Shown here in pieces: positions 10,416-53,390 of a DNA stretch of 64,000 nt. A program made the position numbers and the translations under genes. The notes under the pieces are model-generated. The model searched no databases and had not been told where the DNA came from. It saw nothing but the letters and a program-made list of their open reading frames with translations. The stretch comes from an uncultured Candidatus Saccharibacteria bacterium (GTDB lineage Bacteria > Patescibacteriota > Doudnabacteria > UBA920): positions 1,144-65,143 of the forward strand of contig CAZQMO010000005.1 in assembly GCA_964594755.1 (NCBI GenBank), written 5' to 3'. Position 1 is the first letter of the stretch. Every line of letters begins with the position of its first letter.

Positions 10416-11261
10416 TTAAATTTTAGTTGCGGCTAAAACCCAAAAAAGTAACAACCCAAATAGGCCATTTATAAATGGAAAGTACCAATATACTTTTCGG
10501 ATTTCTTCCATGCTTTTTGGCAGCAACCACAAGCAAGCTGCCACATAAACCAGTGATAGCAAAGCTGACCAAGGCAGCCAAAAGTCAGCAACCACCAAAG
10601 CCGCAGTTGAACCTAACCACAGCACTGAACAAAGCAATAAAGATTTTTTTACCCCTAAAACAACTGCGGTAGTTTTTAGGTTAGCTTGACTATCAGCTTG
10701 AATATCTGGCACGGCAGAAAAGATATGCATAGCAGCGGTCCAGCACCATGCAGCCACAACTGCCCAGATTGGCGGCCAATCCCCGCTCAGCATGGCGTAA
10801 CCAGCAAAACCAATCACCGCATAATGTACATTAGAGATTGCATCAATTGCGGGCTTGGATTTAAAACGCAATGGCTCGGAACTATAAGCCCAAGCTAAAA
10901 ATAAAAAAATTGAGATTAAAATTTGGGTAGGTAGGTTTGGGGCCAGAATAACTAAAATTATACCAATCACAATGCACAACCAGACCCATAATCGCAAAGC
11001 TTTCGATTCTGGTCGCTGAAGTAAATGTTCTTGTTGGCCCTTCTTCTCGTTATAAGGATCGGTATCATCATCAAACAAATCATTCACGCCATAAATAAAT
11101 ATATTTGCGGGGATAATAAAATAACAAAAGTAAAGAATCACTTGCCAATTCAGCAAATCATAAATTGTGTTACTACCAGCGATTGCTCCAACTAAAAAAG
11201 TACCACCAGCATACAACCAAAATCTTGGTCGTGAAATTATTAATAAAGTTGTTAAGTTCAT
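10416..11261 (-). CDS. UbiA-family polyprenyltransferase (membrane)
   Basis: 281 aa with ~8 TM segments and the Asp-rich motif NDLFDDDTD. It is adjacent to the polyprenyl synthase and the CrtM/CrtN-like genes. Confidence 0.7.
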   Translation of the reverse strand: MNLTTLLIISRPRFWLYAGGTFLVGAIAGSNTIYDLLNWQVILYFCYFIIPANIFIYGVNDLFDDDTDPYNEKKGQQEHLLQRPESKALRLWVWLCIVIGIILVILAPNLPTQILISIFLFLAWAYSSEPLRFKSKPAIDAISNVHYAVIGFAGYAMLSGDWPPIWAVVAAWCWTAAMHIFSAVPDIQADSQANLKTTAVVLGVKKSLLLCSVLWLGSTAALVVADFWLPWSALLSLVYVAACLWLLPKSMEEIRKVYWYFPFINGLFGLLLFWVLAATKI

Positions 11262-12314
11262 TTATTTTATTCGAACCATTAAATAATCAATTAAGCTATC
11301 AAAAGCTTCTTGTTGTTTAACTGAAAACGGTAACTGGCGCGATAATTTGAGTGCCTGCACTTGCTGGGCTAGTAATTCTTTCTGTGCCAAGTCATCGATT
11401 TTATGCTCAATCATCTTACTAAGCACCCAGTTCTGCTGTTTAGCGGTTAATAATTGTTTACGATTGTATAAAGCTAGTAAAGTTTGTTTATCCTGACCAG
11501 ACAAACTCTTTAAAGTTTGATAGTAAAGCCAAGTAAGTTTGCGTTCTCGGATATCTCCACCTACAGATTTGCCAGTTTGCTTAGAGTTCCCAAACACCCC
11601 GAGAATATCATCACGGATCTGGAAAATCACACCCATACATTCAGCCAACTGCTGTGTTCGTTTATAAACCTTGGTGGTATATTTACCAGACAAATGAAAG
11701 CCGGCCAGCAATGGTAAAGCGAAGGTATAACGCCCGGTTTTTTGTATATATATTCTGGTAATCTTTTTAAGGTCAGGCTTACGACCAGCCGTAGCCATAT
11801 CAACGTCGTCCATTTGAGCGAAACCTAGATTGACCATTTCATCAGAAAAAAGTTTAATCAACTCCGGCTGAACTTTTTTTGTCGAACCTAAAAGCCCTAC
11901 TGCTAAAAAATAACTGACAATTGCTACACAACTAGCCAAGCTTTCGCCGTAATGCAGTTGCTCTTTTGGTAATAGTCCCGCAAGAGAGTTTTGGTACTGA
12001 GTATGAATAGTTGGTTGACCGCGCCGCTCAGTATCGCGATCCATAATATCATCATGAATTAAAATTCCTGAATGCATTAACTCTAATGCTGCGCCTACTT
12101 TAACTGCATCAGCTTTCACAGAAGCACTCCCTGAATCAGCGGCCAGCACCACTAAACTGCCACGCACCAACTTCCCCGCGCTAGCAAATTTCTGCAAGCG
12201 ATTTAAAGCGTCTTTCGACCACACATACCCTAACCCACTTTTTTGTGAATTTTTAAAAGCTTTGCCCAGCTCAGCTACTAGCAGTTTTTTATAATCTACA
12301 AATGTTTTATTCAT
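11262..12314 (-). CDS. polyprenyl diphosphate synthase (trans-IPPS; CrtE/IspA-like)
   Basis: 350 aa. The first Asp-rich motif is LIHDDIMD. The second region is FQIRDDILGVFG. Confidence 0.75.
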   Translation of the reverse strand: MNKTFVDYKKLLVAELGKAFKNSQKSGLGYVWSKDALNRLQKFASAGKLVRGSLVVLAADSGSASVKADAVKVGAALELMHSGILIHDDIMDRDTERRGQPTIHTQYQNSLAGLLPKEQLHYGESLASCVAIVSYFLAVGLLGSTKKVQPELIKLFSDEMVNLGFAQMDDVDMATAGRKPDLKKITRIYIQKTGRYTFALPLLAGFHLSGKYTTKVYKRTQQLAECMGVIFQIRDDILGVFGNSKQTGKSVGGDIRERKLTWLYYQTLKSLSGQDKQTLLALYNRKQLLTAKQQNWVLSKMIEHKIDDLAQKELLAQQVQALKLSRQLPFSVKQQEAFDSLIDYLMVRIK

Positions 12315-13150
12315 GGAACCAATTGCTTAATTGCCGATAATACAATGCGTTTTCTCGATACACTGACTTTTTCTTCCAGCACAATGAGAGGGTCTGCTTC
12401 GATCACAGAAATAACTTGATCAAATGCTTCAGTAGCTGCTCGGATAGCTAACTGATAGCGTTTTGGGATAAATGAGAATCCAGCTTCTGACTGTGTACGC
12501 CAATCTTTATACAAAGCGATCTGCTCCAACATAAACTGACTAAACTCTTTTGGTTTTGCTTTTGCAACACTGATGGTAAGACTTGAGAAACCGTATCTTT
12601 GATAACTGTCTTTAGGGAAATATACTCGCCCTAATTCATAATCTTCTTTAAAATCTCTTATCATATTCATGTACTGAAACGCTCGCCCAAGCATCTTAGC
12701 CGAAAAATCTGCCTCAATTGGTAAGTTCATCAAACGAGCCATCATTAAACCAATAACTTCAGCCGAACCATAGATGTAATGCAAGGTCTCATCGAGATTG
12801 TCATACTGGCTTTTATGCAAGTCCATATTCATTGAACCAAAAAATGCATCCACCCAACTCTGTTCAAAGGCATATTTTTTTTGTAAAAGCACAAAGCGAT
12901 CAATAATTGGCTCGCCTGAAACTTTACCTTGCACAGCTCCTTGATACAAAGACCAAAAGTTATTAAACTCTTTAACTTTTTGTGGCAGTACGTCCACATA
13001 ATTATCCGCTGTTCTCACAAAAGCATACAGATCAAAAACATCCCGTCGGAGCTTGCCTGGGAAAAATAAGCTAGCAGTGAAAAATGTTTTACTGCCTTGT
13101 TTAAAAATATTAAAGTTTTGCAAATTAGCTAACATGATCTTGTCTAACAT
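12311..13150 (-). CDS. phytoene / dehydrosqualene synthase family protein (CrtB/CrtM-like)
   Basis: 279 aa. Motifs YAFVRTADNYVD, YIYGSAEVIGLM and NMIRDFKEDYELGRVYFP match the squalene/phytoene synthase family. Confidence 0.65.
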   Translation of the reverse strand: MLDKIMLANLQNFNIFKQGSKTFFTASLFFPGKLRRDVFDLYAFVRTADNYVDVLPQKVKEFNNFWSLYQGAVQGKVSGEPIIDRFVLLQKKYAFEQSWVDAFFGSMNMDLHKSQYDNLDETLHYIYGSAEVIGLMMARLMNLPIEADFSAKMLGRAFQYMNMIRDFKEDYELGRVYFPKDSYQRYGFSSLTISVAKAKPKEFSQFMLEQIALYKDWRTQSEAGFSFIPKRYQLAIRAATEAFDQVISVIEADPLIVLEEKVSVSRKRIVLSAIKQLVP

Positions 13151-14600
13151 TATCCCTAGCCAATTGGCCAGAAATTAAAGTCATAGGAACACCAATCCCT
13201 GGCTGGGTAAATTGCCCTACAAAGTATAGGTTATGAACTTTTTTGCTTTTAGTCCTTGGTCTAAACAATGATGTTTGACTTAAAGTGTGACTCAAGCCTA
13301 GAGCCGTACCTTTATATGCATTATAATCAGCCGAAAAGTCATTCAAAGAAAAAAGTCTTTTTACCTTAACGGCATCAGAAACTGTTTGGCCAATACTTTT
13401 TTCAAAATGATTAATGATTTTATGATAATACTGATCTCGAATTTCCAATGTGTCTTCTAATCCGCTAGCAATCGGCACTAAAAAGAATAAATTCTCGGAT
13501 CCTTCTGGCGCAACATCTGAATCTGTCTGCGACGGGCAACAAACGTAATACGAAGGGTCAGATGGCCAAGCTGGCTTTTGAAAAATTGCATTAAAATGCC
13601 GCACCCAATCATTGTCCAAAAACAACATATGGTGCTTCACATTAAGAAGCTTCTTGCTCAGCCCAAGATAAATAATGAACGCCGATGGCGCCATAGTGCG
13701 CTTTTGCCAGTAACTTTCACTATAAGTGCGATCGGATACCTCAAGCAATTGTGTTTCAACATGATGGTAATCAGCATTAGCAACGACAATGTCACAAGGA
13801 TACGTTTGCTTGTCAGTTTCTACCGAAACAGCTTGACCATTTTGTGTATGCACCGCAAGAACATTCTCTTCAAATATAAATTTTGCTCCATACTCTTCAG
13901 CCAATTTTCTGATACCCTCTGCTACTGCGCCAAAACCACCCATGGGATACCAGACTCCAAGATTAAAGTCAGCATGATTAATGACCGAATATAAAGCTGG
14001 GGTATTTTTTGGAGCACCCCCCAGAAAAACCATACTGTACTCTAGAATTTTGCGTAGTTTTTCTGATTTAAAAAACCTTTGAGTGAAGGCGTCTAAGTTT
14101 TGAAAAACATGTAACTTACTACCTTCGATTAGCATTCGTTTATTAAAAAAATCAAATACTGATCGAAAATCTTTATACAAAAATTCTTTCATAGAAACTT
14201 CGTACTGGTATCGAGCTTGCTTCAAATATTCCTGGAGTTGTTTACCAGCACCTGGCTCAATTGATTCAAATAACTCCATGTTCTTTTGTAAAGAAGCTGC
14301 AATATCTACGAACTCATCCTGAAAATAAATCCGGTAGGAAGGATCGAGTCGATGGAGCTGATAATAATCACTTGGCTTCTTACCAAACTCAGCAAAAAAA
14401 TTTTCGAAGGCATCTGGCATCAAATACCAAGAAGGGCCCATGTCAAACTTAAAACCGGCCTCTCGCCAAACTCGAGCCCGGCCACCTATGCTATTATTTT
14501 TTTCGATAACAGTTACATTGTATCCGTCTTTAGCAAGAAAAGCAGCTACGCTTAACCCACCAAAGCCGGCGCCAATTACAACTACATTTTTTGGCGTCAT
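13125..14600 (-). CDS. FAD-dependent carotenoid desaturase of the CrtI/CrtN family, closest by eye to CrtN (diapophytoene desaturase)
   Basis: 491 aa. It has an N-terminal Rossmann fold VVVIGAGFGGL. EKNNSIGGRARVWREAGFKFDMGPSWYLMPD parallels Staphylococcus CrtN EKNNNVGGR...GFTFDMGPTIVMMPD. The C-terminus is LYFVGQFTQPGIGVP. Confidence 0.65.
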   Translation of the reverse strand: MTPKNVVVIGAGFGGLSVAAFLAKDGYNVTVIEKNNSIGGRARVWREAGFKFDMGPSWYLMPDAFENFFAEFGKKPSDYYQLHRLDPSYRIYFQDEFVDIAASLQKNMELFESIEPGAGKQLQEYLKQARYQYEVSMKEFLYKDFRSVFDFFNKRMLIEGSKLHVFQNLDAFTQRFFKSEKLRKILEYSMVFLGGAPKNTPALYSVINHADFNLGVWYPMGGFGAVAEGIRKLAEEYGAKFIFEENVLAVHTQNGQAVSVETDKQTYPCDIVVANADYHHVETQLLEVSDRTYSESYWQKRTMAPSAFIIYLGLSKKLLNVKHHMLFLDNDWVRHFNAIFQKPAWPSDPSYYVCCPSQTDSDVAPEGSENLFFLVPIASGLEDTLEIRDQYYHKIINHFEKSIGQTVSDAVKVKRLFSLNDFSADYNAYKGTALGLSHTLSQTSLFRPRTKSKKVHNLYFVGQFTQPGIGVPMTLISGQLARDNVRQDHVS

Positions 14601-14668: not shown

Positions 14669-16792
14669 TTATTGTCCCTTACGGACGTTCATTCCAGCAC
14701 GAGACTCTATGATTGTAGCAGCTACGTTCTTGGGAACTTCTTCGTAATGATCGAATTCCATTATAGAAGATGCTTGGCCTTGAGTTAAGCTGCGGAGCTG
14801 TGTCGCGTAACCGAACATTTCGGCAAGCGGTACAAACGCAGTAATAACTTTACGACCGGTAATGTCTTCCATGTCTTGGACTTTAGCTCGCTTGGAGTTT
14901 AAGTCGCCGATGACGTCACCCATGTTGGCTTCGGGGGTAGTAACAACGACCTTCATCACAGGCTCCAAGAGTACTGGATTACCTTTCTTCACGGCTTCTT
15001 GCAAACACTTTGAAGCAGCAATTTTGAAAGCCATTTCCGAAGAGTCAACTTCGTGATAACTTCCATCGTACAGCGCGGCCCGGAAGTCTACTAATGGGTA
15101 TCCAGCGATAACACCGTTAGCAGCAGATTCTTGAATACCTTTATCAATTGGCTTGATATATTCTTTTGGAATTACACCACCAACGATTTCATCAACGAAT
15201 TCATAACCTTTACCAGATTCAAGCGGTTCAACGCGCAAGTATACGTGACCATATTGACCACGACCACCAGACTGACGAATGTATTTTACTTCAGCAGTAG
15301 CAGTATTGCGGAAGGTTTCCTTGTAAGCAACTTCTGGCTTACCAACGTTAGCTTCAACTTTGAATTCGCGCTTCATGCGGTCTACCAAAATTTCCAAGTG
15401 AAGTTCACCCATACCAGCAATAATTGTTTGCTGGGTTTCTTCGTTAGAAGAAACATTGAAAGTCGGATCTTCTTCGGCAAGCTTTTGCAAAGCAATACCC
15501 ATTTTTTCTTGGTCAGCTTTGGTCTTTGGCTCAATAGCCATGGAAATAACTGGATCTGCGAACTTGATCTTTTCTAATTCAATTGGCGCATTTTCGGCAC
15601 AAAGAGTGTCGGCAGTGATAGTGTCTTTTGGACCTACCAACGCACAAATGTCACCAGCGAATACTTCTTTCACTTCATCACGTTGGTCAGCGCGCATACG
15701 CACGATACGGCCAACGCGTTCTTTGTTGCCAGTACGAGCGTTAAGCACGTAAGAGCCAGCAGTCAAAGTTCCGGAATAAACGCGGAAGAAAGCTAAGCGA
15801 CCTACGAATGGGTCGGTTGCAATCTTGAAAGCCAATGCAGTGAAAGGTTCGCTGTCGTCTGGCTTGCGTTCTAATTCTTCACCAGTCTTGGGGTTGTGAC
15901 CTTTAACTGGTCCTTTGTCGGTTGGAGATGGCAGGAAGTTAGCAACACCATCAAGCAATGTGCGCACGATAATCCCACGACCGTCGCCACCAAATACAGG
16001 ATAAAATTCACCGCTCTGAACCGCCTTACGAATAGTCAAAAGTAATTCTTCTTCGGTTAAGCCTTCACCACCAAGATACTTTTCCATCATAGCTTCGTCG
16101 TATTCCACGACTTTTTCGATAAGCTCTTGGCGATACTGCTCGGCCTTTTCTTTCATGTCAGCAGGAACTTCACCAATTGTGAATTCTTTATCGGTGTAGT
16201 CCTTGTAAGTGTAGGACTTCATTCCAACTAAATCTACAACACCTACAATGTCTTTTTCGAAACCGATCGGCAGTTGAACTGGGAAAGCGTTTTTGGTGAG
16301 ACGGTTGTGGATGGATTCCAAAGACTTATAAAAGTCGCCGCCGGTTTGGTTGATTTTGTTAATGAAACACATGCGAGGTACGCCGTACTTGTCAGCTTGG
16401 CGCCACACAGTTTCGGATTGGGGCTCTACACCCATTTTACCGTCAAAGACGGTAACTGCACCGTCGAGCACGCGCAAAGAGCGCTCTACTTCTACGGTAA
16501 AGTCTACGTGACCAGGAGTGTCAATGATGTTAATCTTGCACTCTTTGTCGCCGTCTAATTTTAAATACTGAGGCTTCCAGTAACAGGTTACCGCCGCAGA
16601 AGTGATAGTGATACCACGTTCCCGTTCTTGTTCCATCCAGTCGGTTACAGTTTCACCTTCGTGAACCGCACCGATTTTGTGAACCATACCAGTGTTGTAC
16701 AAGATACCTTCGGTAGTTGTAGTTTTACCAGCATCAATGTGAGCGATAATCCCGATATTACGGGTTGCTTCTATTGGATATTCTCTAGGCAT
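14669..16792 (-). CDS. fusA: elongation factor G
   Basis: 707 aa; [28 protein letters not shown]... Confidence 0.96.
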
Positions 16793-16805: not shown

Positions 16806-17318
16806 TTATTTTCTCTTGCTACCAAAGCGGGCAAAGTGAGCAAACGCTTTGTTTGCTTCAGCCATACGGTGAGTGTCTTCACGCTTCTTTACAGCAGCAC
16901 CCATTTTATTGAATGCGTCAATAACTTCTTGAGCAAGCTTCTCGGCCATTGGCGCGCCTTTGCGGGCGCGAGCTGCAGCAATCATCCACTTCATACCAAG
17001 GGCTGTGCGGCGAGGTTCCTGCACTTCCATAGGAACTTGGTAGTTAGAACCACCAATCCGGCGACCTTTGATTTCCATGATTGGAGAAACATTCTTTAAA
17101 GCGATATCAAAGACTTGGCGGGAATCAGTAACTTCCGCCTCTTTGTTTGCTTTCATTTTATCTTCAACAATAACGAGCGCATTGTAAAAAATCTTTTGCG
17201 CAACGCTCTTTTTGCCGCGTTCCATTAAATAGTTAATAAACTTGGCGTACTTCACGCTAGAAAATTGTGGATCTGGCAGTGGAGTGTGTTTTTCAAAACT
17301 TCGTGCTCTTCGTGGCAT
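16806..17318 (-). CDS. rpsG: 30S ribosomal protein S7
   Basis: 170 aa, S7-like; follows rpsL. Confidence 0.93.
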   Translation of the reverse strand: MPRRARSFEKHTPLPDPQFSSVKYAKFINYLMERGKKSVAQKIFYNALVIVEDKMKANKEAEVTDSRQVFDIALKNVSPIMEIKGRRIGGSNYQVPMEVQEPRRTALGMKWMIAAARARKGAPMAEKLAQEVIDAFNKMGAAVKKREDTHRMAEANKAFAHFARFGSKRK

Positions 17319-17334
17319 ATCTTTCTTTCTATCC

Positions 17335-17405
17335 CCTCCCCCTTCTAGGGGGAGGTTAGGTGGGGGTTTCTTGAACCTCCCCTAACCCCTCCTTGAAAGG
17401 AGGGG
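17335..17405. repeat. GC-rich nested-palindrome intergenic repeat, copy A
   Basis: Three hairpins: cctccccc-ttcta-gggggagg; ggttagg-tgggg...cccctaacc; cccctcc-ttgaaa-ggagggg. Related copies occur at 42854-42936 and 38481-38531. Confidence 0.7.
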
Positions 17406-17412
17406 AAAATTC

Positions 17413-17841
17413 TTACGCTGCTGATGCAGCTGGCTTCTTAGCGCCATATTTCGAACGAGAGCGCCGACGACCTTCAACGCCTAAGGTGTCCAACTTACCA
17501 CGAACAATGTGATAACGAACACCAGGTAAATCTTTTACACGACCACCGCGGATCATCACCACGCTGTGTTCCTGCAAGTTGTGACCAACACCAGGAATAT
17601 ACGCAAGTACTTCCATACCGTTAGTCAGTTTGATCTTTGCAACTTTACGCAAAGCAGAGTTTGGCTTCTTTGGAGTGGTTGTGTACACCTTTAAACATAC
17701 ACCGCGCATAAATGGCGCGCCGGTTGGGATGTGCAAAACCTTGTTCTTAATCAAGTTCTGGCGGCGTTGCAATGCCGGAGACTTTGATTTGGCCTTCTGC
17801 AGCTTGCGCGGCTTGCGGACCAATTGGTTAATAGTAGGCAT
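17413..17841 (-). CDS. rpsL: 30S ribosomal protein S12
   Basis: [13 protein letters not shown]...; highly conserved S12. Confidence 0.96.
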
Positions 17842-17910
17842 TTCGTCCAAATTTTACTCACTTGCTCGCGTCCGCTCCGCTATGCGGCCGTCTCGCTCGC
17901 CTGTTCGTAA

Positions 17911-18010
17911 AATTTCTCCTCTCACATTCACGCTTAACCTGCGTCTTTGCGACGGGCTTCGTCGCTACACTCCTCAGCCCTGCAAACACTCGGCCCAAGT
18001 GTGAATGTGC
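17911..18010 (-). promoter_or_regulatory. structured rpsL leader containing the conserved Box A / Box B motif, followed by a 9-bp stem that encloses ~50 nt between an AGGAG and the AUG
   Basis: The minus strand reads cacattcacACTTGGGCCGAGtg...GGTTAAGCGTGAATGTGagaggag. The same boxes occur upstream of tRNA-Arg at 53281-53324 and again at 53673-53699. Confidence 0.5.
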
Positions 18011-18374
18011 GTTAATGATTTTCGGGTGACACGTCCCAATTAATTTAATAATTACGCTACTTATGTGATTGACGTGAATTCGCGAAGACATACGCGGCTA
18101 TTTCGAGCCGTACTAATGGTACGGTGAGAAATAACGCAAGTATATCGACAAAGAATTCGTCCAAAGCTTTATCTGAGTCCAAACTTGTTTTGGACTGGAT
18201 AAAGCATTCACATAATGTAGCGAACAAAAAACCGACCCAAGAGTCAGTCTCTTTGGTTTCGCCAATTGGTACTGCCTGGAAGCCTTGCAGGCGTGATTCC
18301 CAATTTTGCGAGCAATGTGTCAGTAATTCCTTCAGTTAGGGGCTTCAAATGAATTGTGAATATATTATAAAGCA

Positions 18375-18403
18375 TTGAAAGTATTAAGTCAATAAGCTAT
18401 ACT
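18375..18403 (+). promoter_or_regulatory. sigma70-type promoter, TTGAAA-17-TATACT
   Basis: ttgaaa at 18375-18380 and tatact at 18398-18403. GGAGG lies 8 nt upstream of the ATG at 18436. Confidence 0.6.
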
Positions 18404-18435
18404 TTCGTCAACGAAAACTAGAAGGAGGTTTGCCT

Positions 18436-19167
18436 ATGCTGGAAATCACGGCAAATGTTGATACAGAAGCCATAATTCGAGCCAAGCGCTTTTATGAGCG
18501 TAAACGCAAAGGTCCAAAGCCAAAATTTGAGTTTGAAACTCTCTACCAGAAGTTTTGCAACCCAAATCTTAGCTTTAAGAAAATCGCCCGCCAATTGGGC
18601 TGCAGCCACTCTCACGTGTCGTATCTGTTCAATTTTTTTCGGGAAATTGTCCCGGAACAACTACGCAACCCACAAAAGCGTGCCGAACGAGAATGGATAG
18701 AAAATCAAAAGGCTCATATTGATGGGTTGATCAAACTTGATACTGATTCAGCCGCGGCCGTCTTCACAGCCCTTGCCAGACAAAAAAAAATCCGCGCTCA
18801 GCGGATCTACAGTTACTGGTCTGTATTAAAGCGCTACGTCAAAGTAAAAAATCAGCTCTGCTACGTCGCTAGAAATCGCAATCCAAGACGAGCACGTAGC
18901 GAATTTTTTCGACGGTATTTCATGTTCCCTCTTCATAAAGAAGTTGTTGGTTCAGCGAAGTTCATTGTCTTGATTGCGGAATCGCAATTCCGACAAGATA
19001 CTTACATCTTCAAAGCCGAAGATCTAATGAATTTCCAAGGCATGTCTAAACAGCTGTACATTCCCGACATAACGACACCTCCTCTCAAGGATGTGAAGCC
19101 AAGTCAGGATCAACTGCTGATTGAGCCAGCCCGCAACAACTGGGACCTATTCCGAACAGCCGAATAA
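18436..19167 (+). CDS. hypothetical basic protein with a predicted helix-turn-helix; contains an internal A9 tract
   Basis: 244 aa. LSFKKIARQLGCSHSHVSYLF is an HTH-like segment. GC-richer codon usage. The A9 run lies at 18782-18790. Confidence 0.55.
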   Translation: MLEITANVDTEAIIRAKRFYERKRKGPKPKFEFETLYQKFCNPNLSFKKIARQLGCSHSHVSYLFNFFREIVPEQLRNPQKRAEREWIENQKAHIDGLIKLDTDSAAAVFTALARQKKIRAQRIYSYWSVLKRYVKVKNQLCYVARNRNPRRARSEFFRRYFMFPLHKEVVGSAKFIVLIAESQFRQDTYIFKAEDLMNFQGMSKQLYIPDITTPPLKDVKPSQDQLLIEPARNNWDLFRTAE

Positions 19168-19182
19168 TCGGCTGTTTTTTGT
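19159..19182 (+). terminator. intrinsic terminator (agccga-ataa-tcggct + T6)
   Basis: Perfect 6-bp stem and a T-run directly after the stop codon. Confidence 0.7.
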
Positions 19183-19195
19183 TATAAGTATAGCG

Positions 19196-19224
19196 TTGAC
19201 AAAAATACTAATTTTCAGTATAGT
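19196..19224 (+). promoter_or_regulatory. consensus sigma70 promoter, TTGACA-17-TATAGT
   Basis: ttgaca at 19196-19201 and tatagt at 19219-19224. The SD aggagga precedes the ATG at 19273. Confidence 0.65.
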
Positions 19225-19272
19225 ATCATTTGTCACGACCTAATGACTATCAATCTTATGAGGAGGATACAG

Positions 19273-19941
19273 ATGAGATATTACGAACCATGGCACAGCT
19301 CAAACCACAGCCAAACCCCTTCTTTCATCTACGTGATGGAAGAAGAGCTCCGCGGACTACAGCCTGGGGTTTATACTCCGGAGATCAAAGGTTTCAGCTA
19401 CAAGTTACGGCTGGAACCAAAGCCGGGCGGAAAAACCATACTTCGGTACAACGACACCGAAGTGATAATAGACAGGGAGGATAAAGTCCGCCTCACTGCG
19501 GACGGTCAAATGGTGCTAATTAAAGGCCCAAACTACTATCAAGACGTGCTACGCAAAGTCATCGCCCGATCAAAACTCCCTCAAAAACTGCTGATCTACA
19601 GCGACCAGGAAGTCCGTGCAGACTACGGAGAAAATCTGCGCCTCCTAAACGCCAATACCTGGAAGGAACGGCCAGTGGCCCGCAGTAAGGAAGGAAAAAT
19701 GGTGGTTCTTTACGAACACTCTCACGACAGAACGACTACAAGATATCTACAATTCGTCGTGAGGGAACAATTCAAGCACGACGAAACTGTACTTACCGCA
19801 ATCGCCGGGATTGCCTCCAAATTCCCACAGACTCCTTCCGGCGCTTTCTCAAAAGCGTTAAGAGAACAGTGGGAACCATGGGTGCAAACTGCGGCTGAGC
19901 AGTATTACTCAGCCCAGACAACGGTCGCACAGCTAATTTAG
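19273..19941 (+). CDS. hypothetical protein (222 aa), no recognisable domain
   Basis: Strong RBS. GC-richer. Followed by a bidirectional terminator at 19971-20003 (cccccagact-ttag-agtctggggg then ttattttta). Confidence 0.55.
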   Translation: MRYYEPWHSSNHSQTPSFIYVMEEELRGLQPGVYTPEIKGFSYKLRLEPKPGGKTILRYNDTEVIIDREDKVRLTADGQMVLIKGPNYYQDVLRKVIARSKLPQKLLIYSDQEVRADYGENLRLLNANTWKERPVARSKEGKMVVLYEHSHDRTTTRYLQFVVREQFKHDETVLTAIAGIASKFPQTPSGAFSKALREQWEPWVQTAAEQYYSAQTTVAQLI

Positions 19942-20012
19942 CTGCGACGATGGCCTCCTGAAAATTTAAACCCCCAGACTTTAGAGTCTGGGGGTTATTT
20001 TTATAGAAATAT

Positions 20013-20615
20013 TTAGCTAAGTCCAAATAATGCCAGAAAAAATGTGACCACTGGTAATAAAATTTTATCAAGCACACCAAGCAATAAGAATGCTATTACT
20101 AGTAGGAAGCCAAATCGTTCCATCTCGAGAATCCGATACATCAGATTGTCTGGTAAAAACGATGCCAAAATCTTACTACCATCAAGCGGTGGAATAGGTA
20201 AAGCATTAAAGGTGCCTAATACTAAATTAAGAATCACGGCTTTAAGCCAAATATCTTCCATCACGCCACTAACTAAGCCAAAAGTAAGAGGTAGAGCAAA
20301 TAGTGCAGCCAAAATAAAGTTACTTAAAGGTCCAGCAACAGAAACTAAGGCCATGCCAAGCTTGCGAGGTTGTAAACTTTCAAAATTCACTGGTACCGGC
20401 TTGGCTGCGCCAAATATAATTGGACTGCCAACTAAAAGTAATAATCCTGGCAGCAAAATTGACCCAAATGGATCAATATGAGGAATCGGGTTTAAGGTAA
20501 TCCGACCGGCGTCACGTGCAGTACTATCCCCCAGCTTCTCTGCTACAAGACCGTGACTGATTTCGTGAACAATCACTGAAAACAGCAAAATTGCTAAAGT
20601 AATTAGAATATCCAT
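20013..20615 (-). CDS. site-2 protease family zinc metalloprotease (M50)
   Basis: 200 aa, polytopic membrane protein with the HEISHG (HExxH) motif. Confidence 0.8.
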   Translation of the reverse strand: MDILITLAILLFSVIVHEISHGLVAEKLGDSTARDAGRITLNPIPHIDPFGSILLPGLLLLVGSPIIFGAAKPVPVNFESLQPRKLGMALVSVAGPLSNFILAALFALPLTFGLVSGVMEDIWLKAVILNLVLGTFNALPIPPLDGSKILASFLPDNLMYRILEMERFGFLLVIAFLLLGVLDKILLPVVTFFLALFGLS

Positions 20616-42853: not shown

Positions 42854-42936
42854 CCTCCCCCTCGCGAGGGGGAGGCTGGGTGGGGGTTAGATTTCATAAA
42901 ACCCTCCCCTAACCCCTCCCTTAAAAGGGATAGGGA
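42854..42936. repeat. GC-rich nested-palindrome intergenic repeat, copy C
   Basis: cctccccctcg|cgagggggagg is a perfect 22-nt palindrome. gggggttag...ctaacccc and ccctccc...gggataggg follow. Same order of blocks as copy A. Confidence 0.7.
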
Positions 42937-53250: not shown

Positions 53251-53280
53251 TCTTTAGTTGTTACTCTAGACCATATTCAC

Positions 53281-53390
53281 ACTTGGGCCGAGCAGAGCGA
53301 GGTTAAGCGTGAATGTGGAAGGAGTAGTTTACGGAGGGCGGTAGAAATTGGCTTTAGCCGATTTCGTAAGCCCGAAGAAAACTACGACGT
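53281..53390 (+). promoter_or_regulatory. structured tRNA leader: Box A ACTTGGGCCGAG, Box B GGTTAAGCGTGAATGTGGAAGGAG, then a 7-bp-stem hairpin (GUAGUUU...AAACUAC) and CGAC immediately before the tRNA
   Basis: Same boxes as the rpsL leader (17911-18010) and as 53673-53699. Confidence 0.5.

Follow-up and report, generated by a model that had tools for sequence, protein, structure and literature searches.

A putative attenuator leader of the rpsL operon and an optional homing-endonuclease-like cassette appear to lie back to back in a Saccharibacteria genome

Upstream of rpsL, the first gene of the rpsL-rpsG-fusA (str) operon, the 64,000-nucleotide (nt) window analysed here carries a 594-nt intergenic region followed by two genes, referred to as gene 1 and gene 2, that are the sole plus-strand open reading frames (ORFs) of at least 150 amino acids (aa) within a minus-strand run of about 40 kb. 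The source genome is that of a member of Candidatus Saccharibacteria (TM7, candidate phyla radiation (CPR)), and the nearest GTDB representative bearing the locus is titled 'uncultured Candidatus Saccharibacteria bacterium'. What does this arrangement represent? A first-pass annotation of the DNA read it as a single acquired island, with about 370 nt of hairpin-rich noncoding DNA as a prelude to a helix-turn-helix (HTH) regulator and an effector, the regulator possibly being switched on or off by a run of nine adenines (A9) in its coding sequence. The signals on which that reading was built are real, as both near-consensus promoters, both ribosome-binding sites (RBSs), both terminators and the A9 tract are present (Table 1), and the region contains 15 terminator-like sites as compared with 5.2 ± 2.3 in shuffled sequences. 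The explanation that we favour, with somewhat better than even confidence, is that two unrelated things have been placed back to back: a leader/attenuator of the str operon on the minus strand and an optional homing-endonuclease-like cassette on the plus strand.

The hairpin-rich DNA does not introduce the island: it belongs to the minus strand, where it forms the 5' leader of rpsL, and it is conserved with or without the island. In alignments of the relatives, conservation of sequence begins at the predicted transcription start site, at ~18357, which bounds the conserved minus-strand block at its 5' end, and a hairpin with a U-run at 18226–18247 bounds it at its 3' end. The TTGACT/TATAAT hexamers of the str promoter are invariant in all relatives, the island-free genome included. 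The leader is 88–97% identical in nucleotide sequence between lineages whose neighbouring genes are synonymously saturated (flanking synonymous divergence, pS, 0.5–0.9), and the block is near-invariant while the gene 1 proteins of the same lineages are merely 42–53% identical. A covariance model of the leader, built from six sequences, detects exactly one leader in each genome, both in the window and wherever a locus of this clade was searched, always on the rpsL strand and 40–375 nt upstream of rpsL whether gene 1 is present or not; the same model detects no leader in the clade of the distant gene 1 homologue P0035 (L018–L020). Because insertions or deletions of 1 nt occur inside the leader in relatives, coding by this block is excluded. 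A 43-aa minus-strand ORF that overlaps it (18244–18375) was rejected on these grounds and because the substitutions are compensatory in the helices.

The structure predicted for the leader comprises a short helix P1, a two-part helix P2 with helix P3 nested inside it, and a terminator stem. Among ten distinct leader sequences, compensatory changes on both sides are found in 12 of the 25 modelled pairs, paired cells amount to 96.3% as compared with 18–45% when the partners are slid, and none of 500 shuffles matches the observed covariation score, although the alignment from which these figures come was fitted to the covariance model and is biased in favour of the structure. The covariation support is located in P2a, P2b and P3. 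Extra hairpins are inserted in the P1 loop or ahead of P3 in some lineages; structured RNAs often carry such inserted hairpins. The P1 loop has the hexamer GAAGCC and the P3 loop the hexamer GGCUUC; both are invariant, and their perfect complementarity suggests that the two loops could form a kissing interaction.

At the 3' end of the leader, two mutually exclusive hairpins are possible in every lineage. The terminator hairpin, CUGAC/GUCRG, has a calculated stability of -4.2 to -5.5 kcal/mol, and the alternative hairpin, ACC..GAG/CUC..GGU, one of -5.6 to -7.0 kcal/mol, the latter with two compensatory changes in relative L021. Alternative 3' hairpins that overlap in this way are what an attenuator is built of. 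The terminator was also detected in L003 and L025, and in these two loci and the window no further sigma-70-like promoter was found between the leader terminator and rpsL. Transcription of the str operon must therefore proceed through the leader, and since read-through is required, the leader is most likely a transcription attenuator.

Searches for a described RNA of this kind were negative. The leader has no family match in Rfam 15, either at the gathering threshold or at E ≤ 10 and with the rpsL motifs included, and phage, plasmid and IMG/VR collections contain nothing related to it. Identities as signal recognition particle RNA, 6S RNA or T-box were considered and rejected, there being no Rfam match and no characteristic motifs. 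No report of a ribosomal-protein leader in Saccharibacteria was found in the literature library that was searched. Attenuators in rpsL leaders have reportedly been predicted by Merino and Yanofsky. The rpsL leaders have been described as 'multiform' attenuators that occur in many phyla and have no common structure (Naville & Gautheret 2010, PMC2965389), and a separate rpsL motif has been described in Pelagibacter (Meyer et al. 2009, PMC2704228). The present leader is similar to the rpsL-leader attenuators and the Pelagibacter motif in being a structured 5' leader with a terminator ahead of rpsL-rpsG-fusA, and the rpsL-leader attenuators are likewise lineage-specific in sequence and structure, with presumed feedback by an operon product. 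It differs from the known rpsL motifs in that there is no match of sequence or structure, with P1, nested P2/P3 and possible kissing loops as its own features, and from the known leaders in its unusually high primary-sequence conservation and its Saccharibacteria (CPR) host. It is most likely an undescribed, lineage-specific Saccharibacteria variant of the rpsL-leader attenuator and very probably controls the rpsL operon; by analogy, its state would be set by an operon product, S12 or S7.

On the plus strand, both genes are real by the measure of their codon substitutions, because the ratio of nonsynonymous to synonymous substitution rates (dN/dS) is 0.05–0.08 in gene 1, where purifying selection acts within alleles, and about 0.2 in gene 2. 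Gene 1 occupies an identical position in seven allele lineages (the window type, L001, L017, L021, L022, L023 and L028), between the stop codon of the M50 peptidase gene and the str -35 box and divergent from rpsL. Every allele has its promoter interleaved with the str promoter over a stretch of about 45 bp and retains the TATACT -10 and TTGNNN -35 boxes, and in other alleles, too, a hairpin like that of the window spans the stop codon. In L025 and L026 (contigs of 112 kb and 27 kb) the site is empty, with M50 followed by 45 nt and then by the same promoter and leader, and neither gene is present. The genes are thus accessory, as had been supposed, and not core, and several lineages have gene 1 alone. 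This polymorphism of presence and absence at a fixed site beside conserved DNA is of the kind associated with free-standing homing endonucleases, as is a gene history incongruent with that of the host, which is also found. Between the window and L017, the elongation factor EF-G, S7, S12 and M50 are 96, 97, 98 and 93% identical and gene 1 is 42% identical, with nonsynonymous divergences (pN) of 0.40 in gene 1 and 0.054 in M50. Between the window and L007, at a similar host distance, the corresponding identities are 98, 99, 98 and 92%, and gene 1 is 90% identical, with pN of 0.052 in gene 1 and 0.062 in M50. The ratio of gene 1 pN to M50 pN differs accordingly between pairs (0.8, 3.1 and 7.4). 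Because the divergence of gene 1 is out of step with the host and selection inside alleles is purifying, these comparisons point to replacement of gene 1 alleles by horizontal exchange, not to clock-like divergence. The most distant gene 1 homologue, P0035 (21% identity; L018 2114–5857), is found beyond M50, following rpmB (L28). In the L018 clade, rpsL comes after a 168-aa gene and lacks both the leader RNA and rpsG-fusA downstream.

The gene 1 protein is basic and has an N-terminal HTH (~residues 30–70), a long helix and a C-terminal α/β domain (~residues 105–243). The HTH recorded in the first-pass annotation holds up: residues ~42–63 give sub-threshold generic Pfam HTH matches only (E 0.02–0.07), Sigma70_r4 is matched by 5 of 24 family members (best E 5.5e-4), distant family members have an HTH of the GVSRERVRQLY kind, profile matches to sigma factors in the PDB are weak (E about 1), and the AlphaFold2 (AF2) model is helical in this region. 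The HTH resembles sigma-70 region 4. Word-indexed searches returned relatives in two 90% clusters only, and an exhaustive HMMER search returned 25 family representatives among 1.84e9 proteins, mostly about 240 aa in length with a few stand-alone C-terminal domains of ~160 aa. No significant family was found for gene 1 in Pfam, PHROGs, PADLOC or NCBIfam. Read on the minus strand, a hairpin at 18788–18808, beside the A9 tract and within gene 1, resembles a terminator, with a stem and T9; the stem is weakened in L007-type relatives and is probably fortuitous.

The AF2 and Foldseek check that had been suggested for gene 1 was informative. The model made with the family alignment is confident (predicted local distance difference test score (pLDDT) 90.4, predicted template modelling (TM) score 0.73), and its top match in the PDB is the PD-(D/E)XK homing endonuclease I-Ssp6803I (2OST; probability 0.97–0.99, E about 0.013), followed by MepB, the SPARDA DREN nuclease domain and Holliday-junction resolvases. 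The matches in BFVD, a library of viral structures, are also PD-(D/E)XK proteins. The restriction-endonuclease-like fold predicted for the C-terminal domain is to be taken as a fold-level lead and not as family membership. I-Ssp6803I, although the best structural match of this domain, is only 12–15% identical in sequence with a modest TM-score, and its D...(D/E)XK motif is not conserved in the gene 1 family. The next-best matches, MepB (4LQE), which represents PD-(D/E)XK-fold proteins that are non-catalytic or uncharacterised, and the Holliday-junction resolvases Hjc and RecU, share a small α/β core but have no N-terminal HTH similar to sigma-70 region 4, no sequence similarity and another genomic context. 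Modular free-standing homing endonucleases with HTH domains include I-TevI and those of the Seg/Mob type. Gene 1 is like these in encoding a small protein with an HTH and a predicted nuclease-type fold that is present or absent at one site and has alleles incongruent with the host. It is unlike homing endonucleases in lying outside any intron or intein and in having the HTH first in the domain order.

Gene 2, described at first as having no recognisable domain, indeed has no match in Pfam, PHROG, PADLOC, NCBIfam or the sequences of the PDB. The protein is β-rich and its AF2 model is poor (pLDDT 48). A conserved core at ~residues 52–110, DG..(I/L)KGP..Y...K..A.S, is common to all homologues. 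Close homologues are confined to the window clade. Diverged homologues are found in L022, after the gene 1 homologue (28% identity over 110 aa, E 8e-12), and in L028, before the gene 1 homologue (30% over 63 aa, E 1e-6), so that a gene 2 homologue accompanies gene 1 in three of the seven allele lineages and in both orders. This recurrence argues for a functional link between the two genes and fits that part of the proposed module. The description of the pair as GC-richer applies to gene 2, which at 0.498 ranks first among the 50 ORFs of the window (z = 2.1), and not to gene 1, which at 0.445 is ordinary among them (z = 0.6). At 19951–20002, beyond gene 2, there is a sub-threshold Rfam match to the cyanobacterial small RNA NsiR1 (31.4 bits as compared with a gathering threshold of 39, E 0.0011). 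This identity was rejected because the match coincides with the bidirectional terminator and most likely reflects the hairpin alone.

The scheme that we propose for the locus is as follows. On the minus strand, a strong sigma-70-type promoter (18392..18364) would drive a structured leader of ~130 nt (18357..18226) that would fold into P1 and a two-part helix P2 enclosing P3, possibly with kissing of GAAGCC and GGCUUC. A weak intrinsic terminator, overlapping an alternative hairpin of similar stability, would attenuate rpsL-rpsG-fusA, and S12 or S7 would determine which state is adopted, as in other ribosomal-protein leaders. On the plus strand, an optional cassette would have been inserted between the M50 gene and the str -35 box. 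Gene 1 would encode a basic protein that binds DNA and combines an HTH with a restriction-endonuclease-like domain, in a layout as in homing endonucleases; its alleles would be swapped between lineages at one site flanked by near-invariant DNA, and its promoter would compete with the interleaved str promoter. Gene 2 would be a facultative partner. The cassette as a whole would most likely be a site-specific module, selfish or accessory, that binds or nicks DNA in the manner of free-standing homing endonucleases. A bolder form of the proposal, in which the leader is a new class of kissing-loop regulatory RNA and gene 1 founds a family of homing endonucleases (or of nuclease-dead derivatives) that homes to the near-invariant leader and promoter DNA, so that a selfish element would parasitise the rpsL operon of an ultra-small genome and rival its promoter, we regard as unlikely.

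Several observations weigh against this scheme. Foldseek matches the fold of gene 1 with modest scores (E about 0.01; TM about 0.5 relative to the target), and no acidic residue is invariant across the 24-sequence alignment of the family, which makes nuclease activity doubtful. Conservation of D188, D211 and R186 is confined to the near subfamily; of these, D188 and D211 are shared by the 14 nearest members and lie outside a canonical (D/E)XK context, so that the family does not have the catalytic D...(D/E)XK arrangement of PD-(D/E)XK nucleases. The occurrence of gene 1 in six of the seven lineages sampled is also consistent with ancestral residence, one loss and ordinary homologous recombination, and neither gene has relatives in phage, plasmid and IMG/VR collections. 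In the leader, neither P1 nor the terminator stem nor the kissing hexamers vary, and so they lie beyond the reach of the covariation test. Mimicry of rRNA by the leader, assessed on primary sequence against E. coli 16S and 23S, is not significant, the best local match to E. coli 16S being 10 nt long (GGAAUUACUG) and equalled in 65 of 200 shuffles. Finally, positions 1–1279 of L012 form a three-part mosaic of a window-type rpsL-proximal hairpin, an L025-type leader P2–P4 with extension and an L011-type promoter with gene 1. The breakpoints lie within invariant stretches. The mosaic may reflect recombination or chimeric assembly, and because short metagenomic contigs such as L012 can be chimeric it was kept out of the primary evidence.

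The explanation put forward by the first-pass annotation, an acquired regulator-plus-effector module in which the HTH regulator is switched by slipped-strand mispairing at A9, can be judged from the tract itself. A9 is the longest homopolymer in the window and, as in phase-variable contingency genes, the 9-nt poly-A run lies within a coding sequence that slippage would truncate: with A8 or A10, gene 1 would be shortened to 130 or 145 aa and would retain the HTH alone. The two genes are, moreover, accessory and paired. However, relatives do not conserve the tract. In the orthologues of 90% identity (L007 and L009–L012) the site is CAG AAA AAG A, with the run reduced to A5 by synonymous changes, a 53%-identical allele has AGG CAA A at this site, other alleles have no tract, and all 15 of the gene 1 copies examined are in frame. 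Unlike the tracts of phase-variable contingency genes, this one is neither retained nor variable in length in any relative, A9 being found in this contig only, and codon usage explains it. With the codon usage of the genome (AAA 62%, CAA 64%), the residues Q-K-K-I are expected to produce A9 ~25% of the time; the tract is therefore no more than chance would give and is an incidental outcome of codon choice. Slippage at A9 is physically possible, but a maintained switch is unsupported by the alleles compared, and we consider this explanation very improbable. As to the split into regulator and effector, a nuclease-like domain is found in gene 1, the supposed regulator itself. A small defence or toxin-antitoxin-like system, consisting of an HTH-nuclease and its partner in a variable island, would fit a locus that is hypervariable and patchy between conserved genes, a nuclease-like fold with the SPARDA DREN domain among its matches, two genes linked in variable order and the atypical GC content of gene 2. 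It fits poorly with the separate promoter and terminator of each gene, with the frequent occurrence of gene 1 alone and with a catalytic motif that is not conserved, and the check for defence systems returned zero families at E ≤ 1 for both proteins in PADLOC-DB 2.0. Such a system is improbable here.

A role for gene 1 as a domesticated transcription factor, with its HTH joined to a catalytically dead nuclease fold and regulating the interleaved divergent promoters (the gene 1 promoter and the one that serves the leader and str operon), is a possibility to which we assign a probability well short of even. The close interleaving of the promoters in all alleles, an HTH like sigma-70 region 4, a family without family-wide catalytic residues and the strong purifying selection would all suit such a regulator, and the distant homologue P0035 is also near M50, L28 and rpsL. 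Yet the leader and its promoter are unchanged in a genome without gene 1, and allele divergence that is out of step with the host would be odd for the regulator of a core operon. The conserved RNA could likewise be an independent small RNA or a small-molecule riboswitch that is merely upstream of rpsL, and not a cis-acting ribosomal-protein leader. Its own promoter and terminator, the long and variable distance to rpsL, the near-invariant single-stranded stretches, which are unusual for ribosomal-protein leaders, and the failure to detect mimicry of E. coli rRNA are in its favour, whereas the constant location directly upstream on the rpsL strand with no promoter between, the alternative 3' hairpins typical of attenuators and the single copy per genome are not; an independent RNA seems unlikely to us.

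The preferred reading, an str leader/attenuator beside an optional cassette, has some wider implications. Very little cis-regulatory RNA has been described so far in the tiny genomes of Saccharibacteria and other CPR bacteria, and a covariation-supported RNA ahead of rpsL-rpsG-fusA offers a testable handle on the tuning of ribosome synthesis in Saccharibacteria. The cassette adds an unannotated family that combines an HTH with a nuclease-like fold, and indicates that even right beside the most conserved operon genes are gained and lost and alleles exchanged. Recognition of the invariant leader DNA by the gene 1 protein, if it takes place, would add a new case of a core regulatory sequence being exploited by a selfish element. 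The analysis also corrects an easy mis-annotation, in which intergenic 'hairpin-rich DNA' is assigned to the wrong strand and the wrong gene. The coordinates of the features are collected in Table 1.

Table 1. Features of the rpsL–M50 region, in window coordinates
Feature	Position	Strand	Basis or remark
fusA	14669-16792	-	third gene of rpsL-rpsG-fusA (str operon)
rpsG	16806-17318	-	second gene of str operon
rpsL (ribosomal protein S12, 141 aa, ATG at 17841)	17413..17841	-	first gene of the operon; translation begins MPTINQLV
Variable hairpin-rich downstream portion of the rpsL 5' untranslated region	17842..18225	-	alignments, folding
Conserved structured leader RNA, ~130 nt	18226..18357	-	conservation, covariance model
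Leader P1	18351-18355/18325-18329	-	AAUUC/GAAUU, invariant
Leader P2a	18308-18311/18259-18262	-	covariation-supported
Leader P2b	18300-18305/18264-18269	-	covariation-supported
Leader P3	18288-18292/18274-18278	-	covariation-supported; nested inside P2
Leader terminator stem	18243-18247/18232-18236, U-run 18226-18231	-	invariant stem
Promoter of leader and str operon, TTGACT-17-TATAAT, 11/12	18364..18392	-	promoter scan, conservation
Gene 1 promoter, TTGAAA-17-TATACT, 10/12	18375..18403	+	interleaved back to back with str promoter
Gene 1 RBS, AAGGAGG	18422-18428	+	precedes ATG at 18436
Gene 1, 243 aa	18436..19167	+	ORF, dN/dS, structure model
A9 tract, CAA AAA AAA A, codons Q116-K117-K118-I119	18782..18790	+	inside gene 1
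Gene 1 intrinsic terminator (stem 19154-19177 and T-run)	19154..19183	+	overlaps stop codon
Gene 2 promoter, TTGACA-17-TATAGT, 11/12	19196..19224	+	promoter scan
Gene 2 RBS, GAGGAGG	19260-19266	+	precedes ATG at 19273
Gene 2, 222 aa	19273..19941	+	ORF, dN/dS
Bidirectional terminator common to gene 2 (+) and M50 peptidase gene (-)	19969..19996	both	terminator scan
M50-family peptidase gene	20013..20615	-	conserved outer flank of variable site

Between the leader and rpsL, the 5' untranslated region varies among lineages. The spacer from the U-run to rpsL is ~40 nt in L003, ~95–100 nt in L021 and L023 and ~375 nt in the window, where the additional length consists of hairpin-rich insertions. An extension at 18040–18225 is common to the window, L007 and L025, a small conserved hairpin, GGGAC..GUCACCC, lies at 18024–18037, and a long hairpin at 17923–18009 is lineage-specific. 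The minimum free energies of the two halves of this variable part are -69 and -68 kcal/mol. An rpsL start placed 2 nt past the U-run in L021 was rejected as mis-called, the real ATG being ~95 nt downstream. The arms of the 17923–18009 hairpin recur, in two exact matches of 18 nt, at 53275–53317, a short distance upstream of tRNA-Arg (53391), which suggests that the hairpin belongs to a dispersed hairpin repeat family.

The S12 proteins of the relatives are 88–98% identical. The S12 of the window and of L001–L017 presumably has an insertion of ~17 aa relative to that of E. coli. The rpsL gene calls of 97–98 aa in public contigs (relatives L001–L017) start at an internal Met after the insertion; they are truncated gene calls, and the possibility that rpsL is broken or frameshifted in those contigs was rejected. 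The spacer between rpsL and rpsG (17319–17412) is a 94-nt element of G-run and C-run hairpins with partial repeats at 42867–42919 of the window, and in relatives unrelated inserts of 20–140 nt are found at the same spot. In L014, the spacer contains a hairpin of the CATTCCCGCGAAGGCGGGAATC type that recurs upstream of rpsL of the same locus. These inserts look like small mobile hairpin-forming intergenic elements.

Downstream of fusA, at 10416–14600 on the minus strand (L007 419–5319), is a group of genes for a glycosyltransferase, a UbiA prenyltransferase, a polyprenyl synthase, a squalene/phytoene synthase and a phytoene-desaturase-like FAD oxidase, as labelled from the Pfam assignments of the syntenic genes of L007. 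Judged by these labels, the group is a predicted isoprenoid or carotenoid-type pathway, which is unexpected in a reduced CPR genome.

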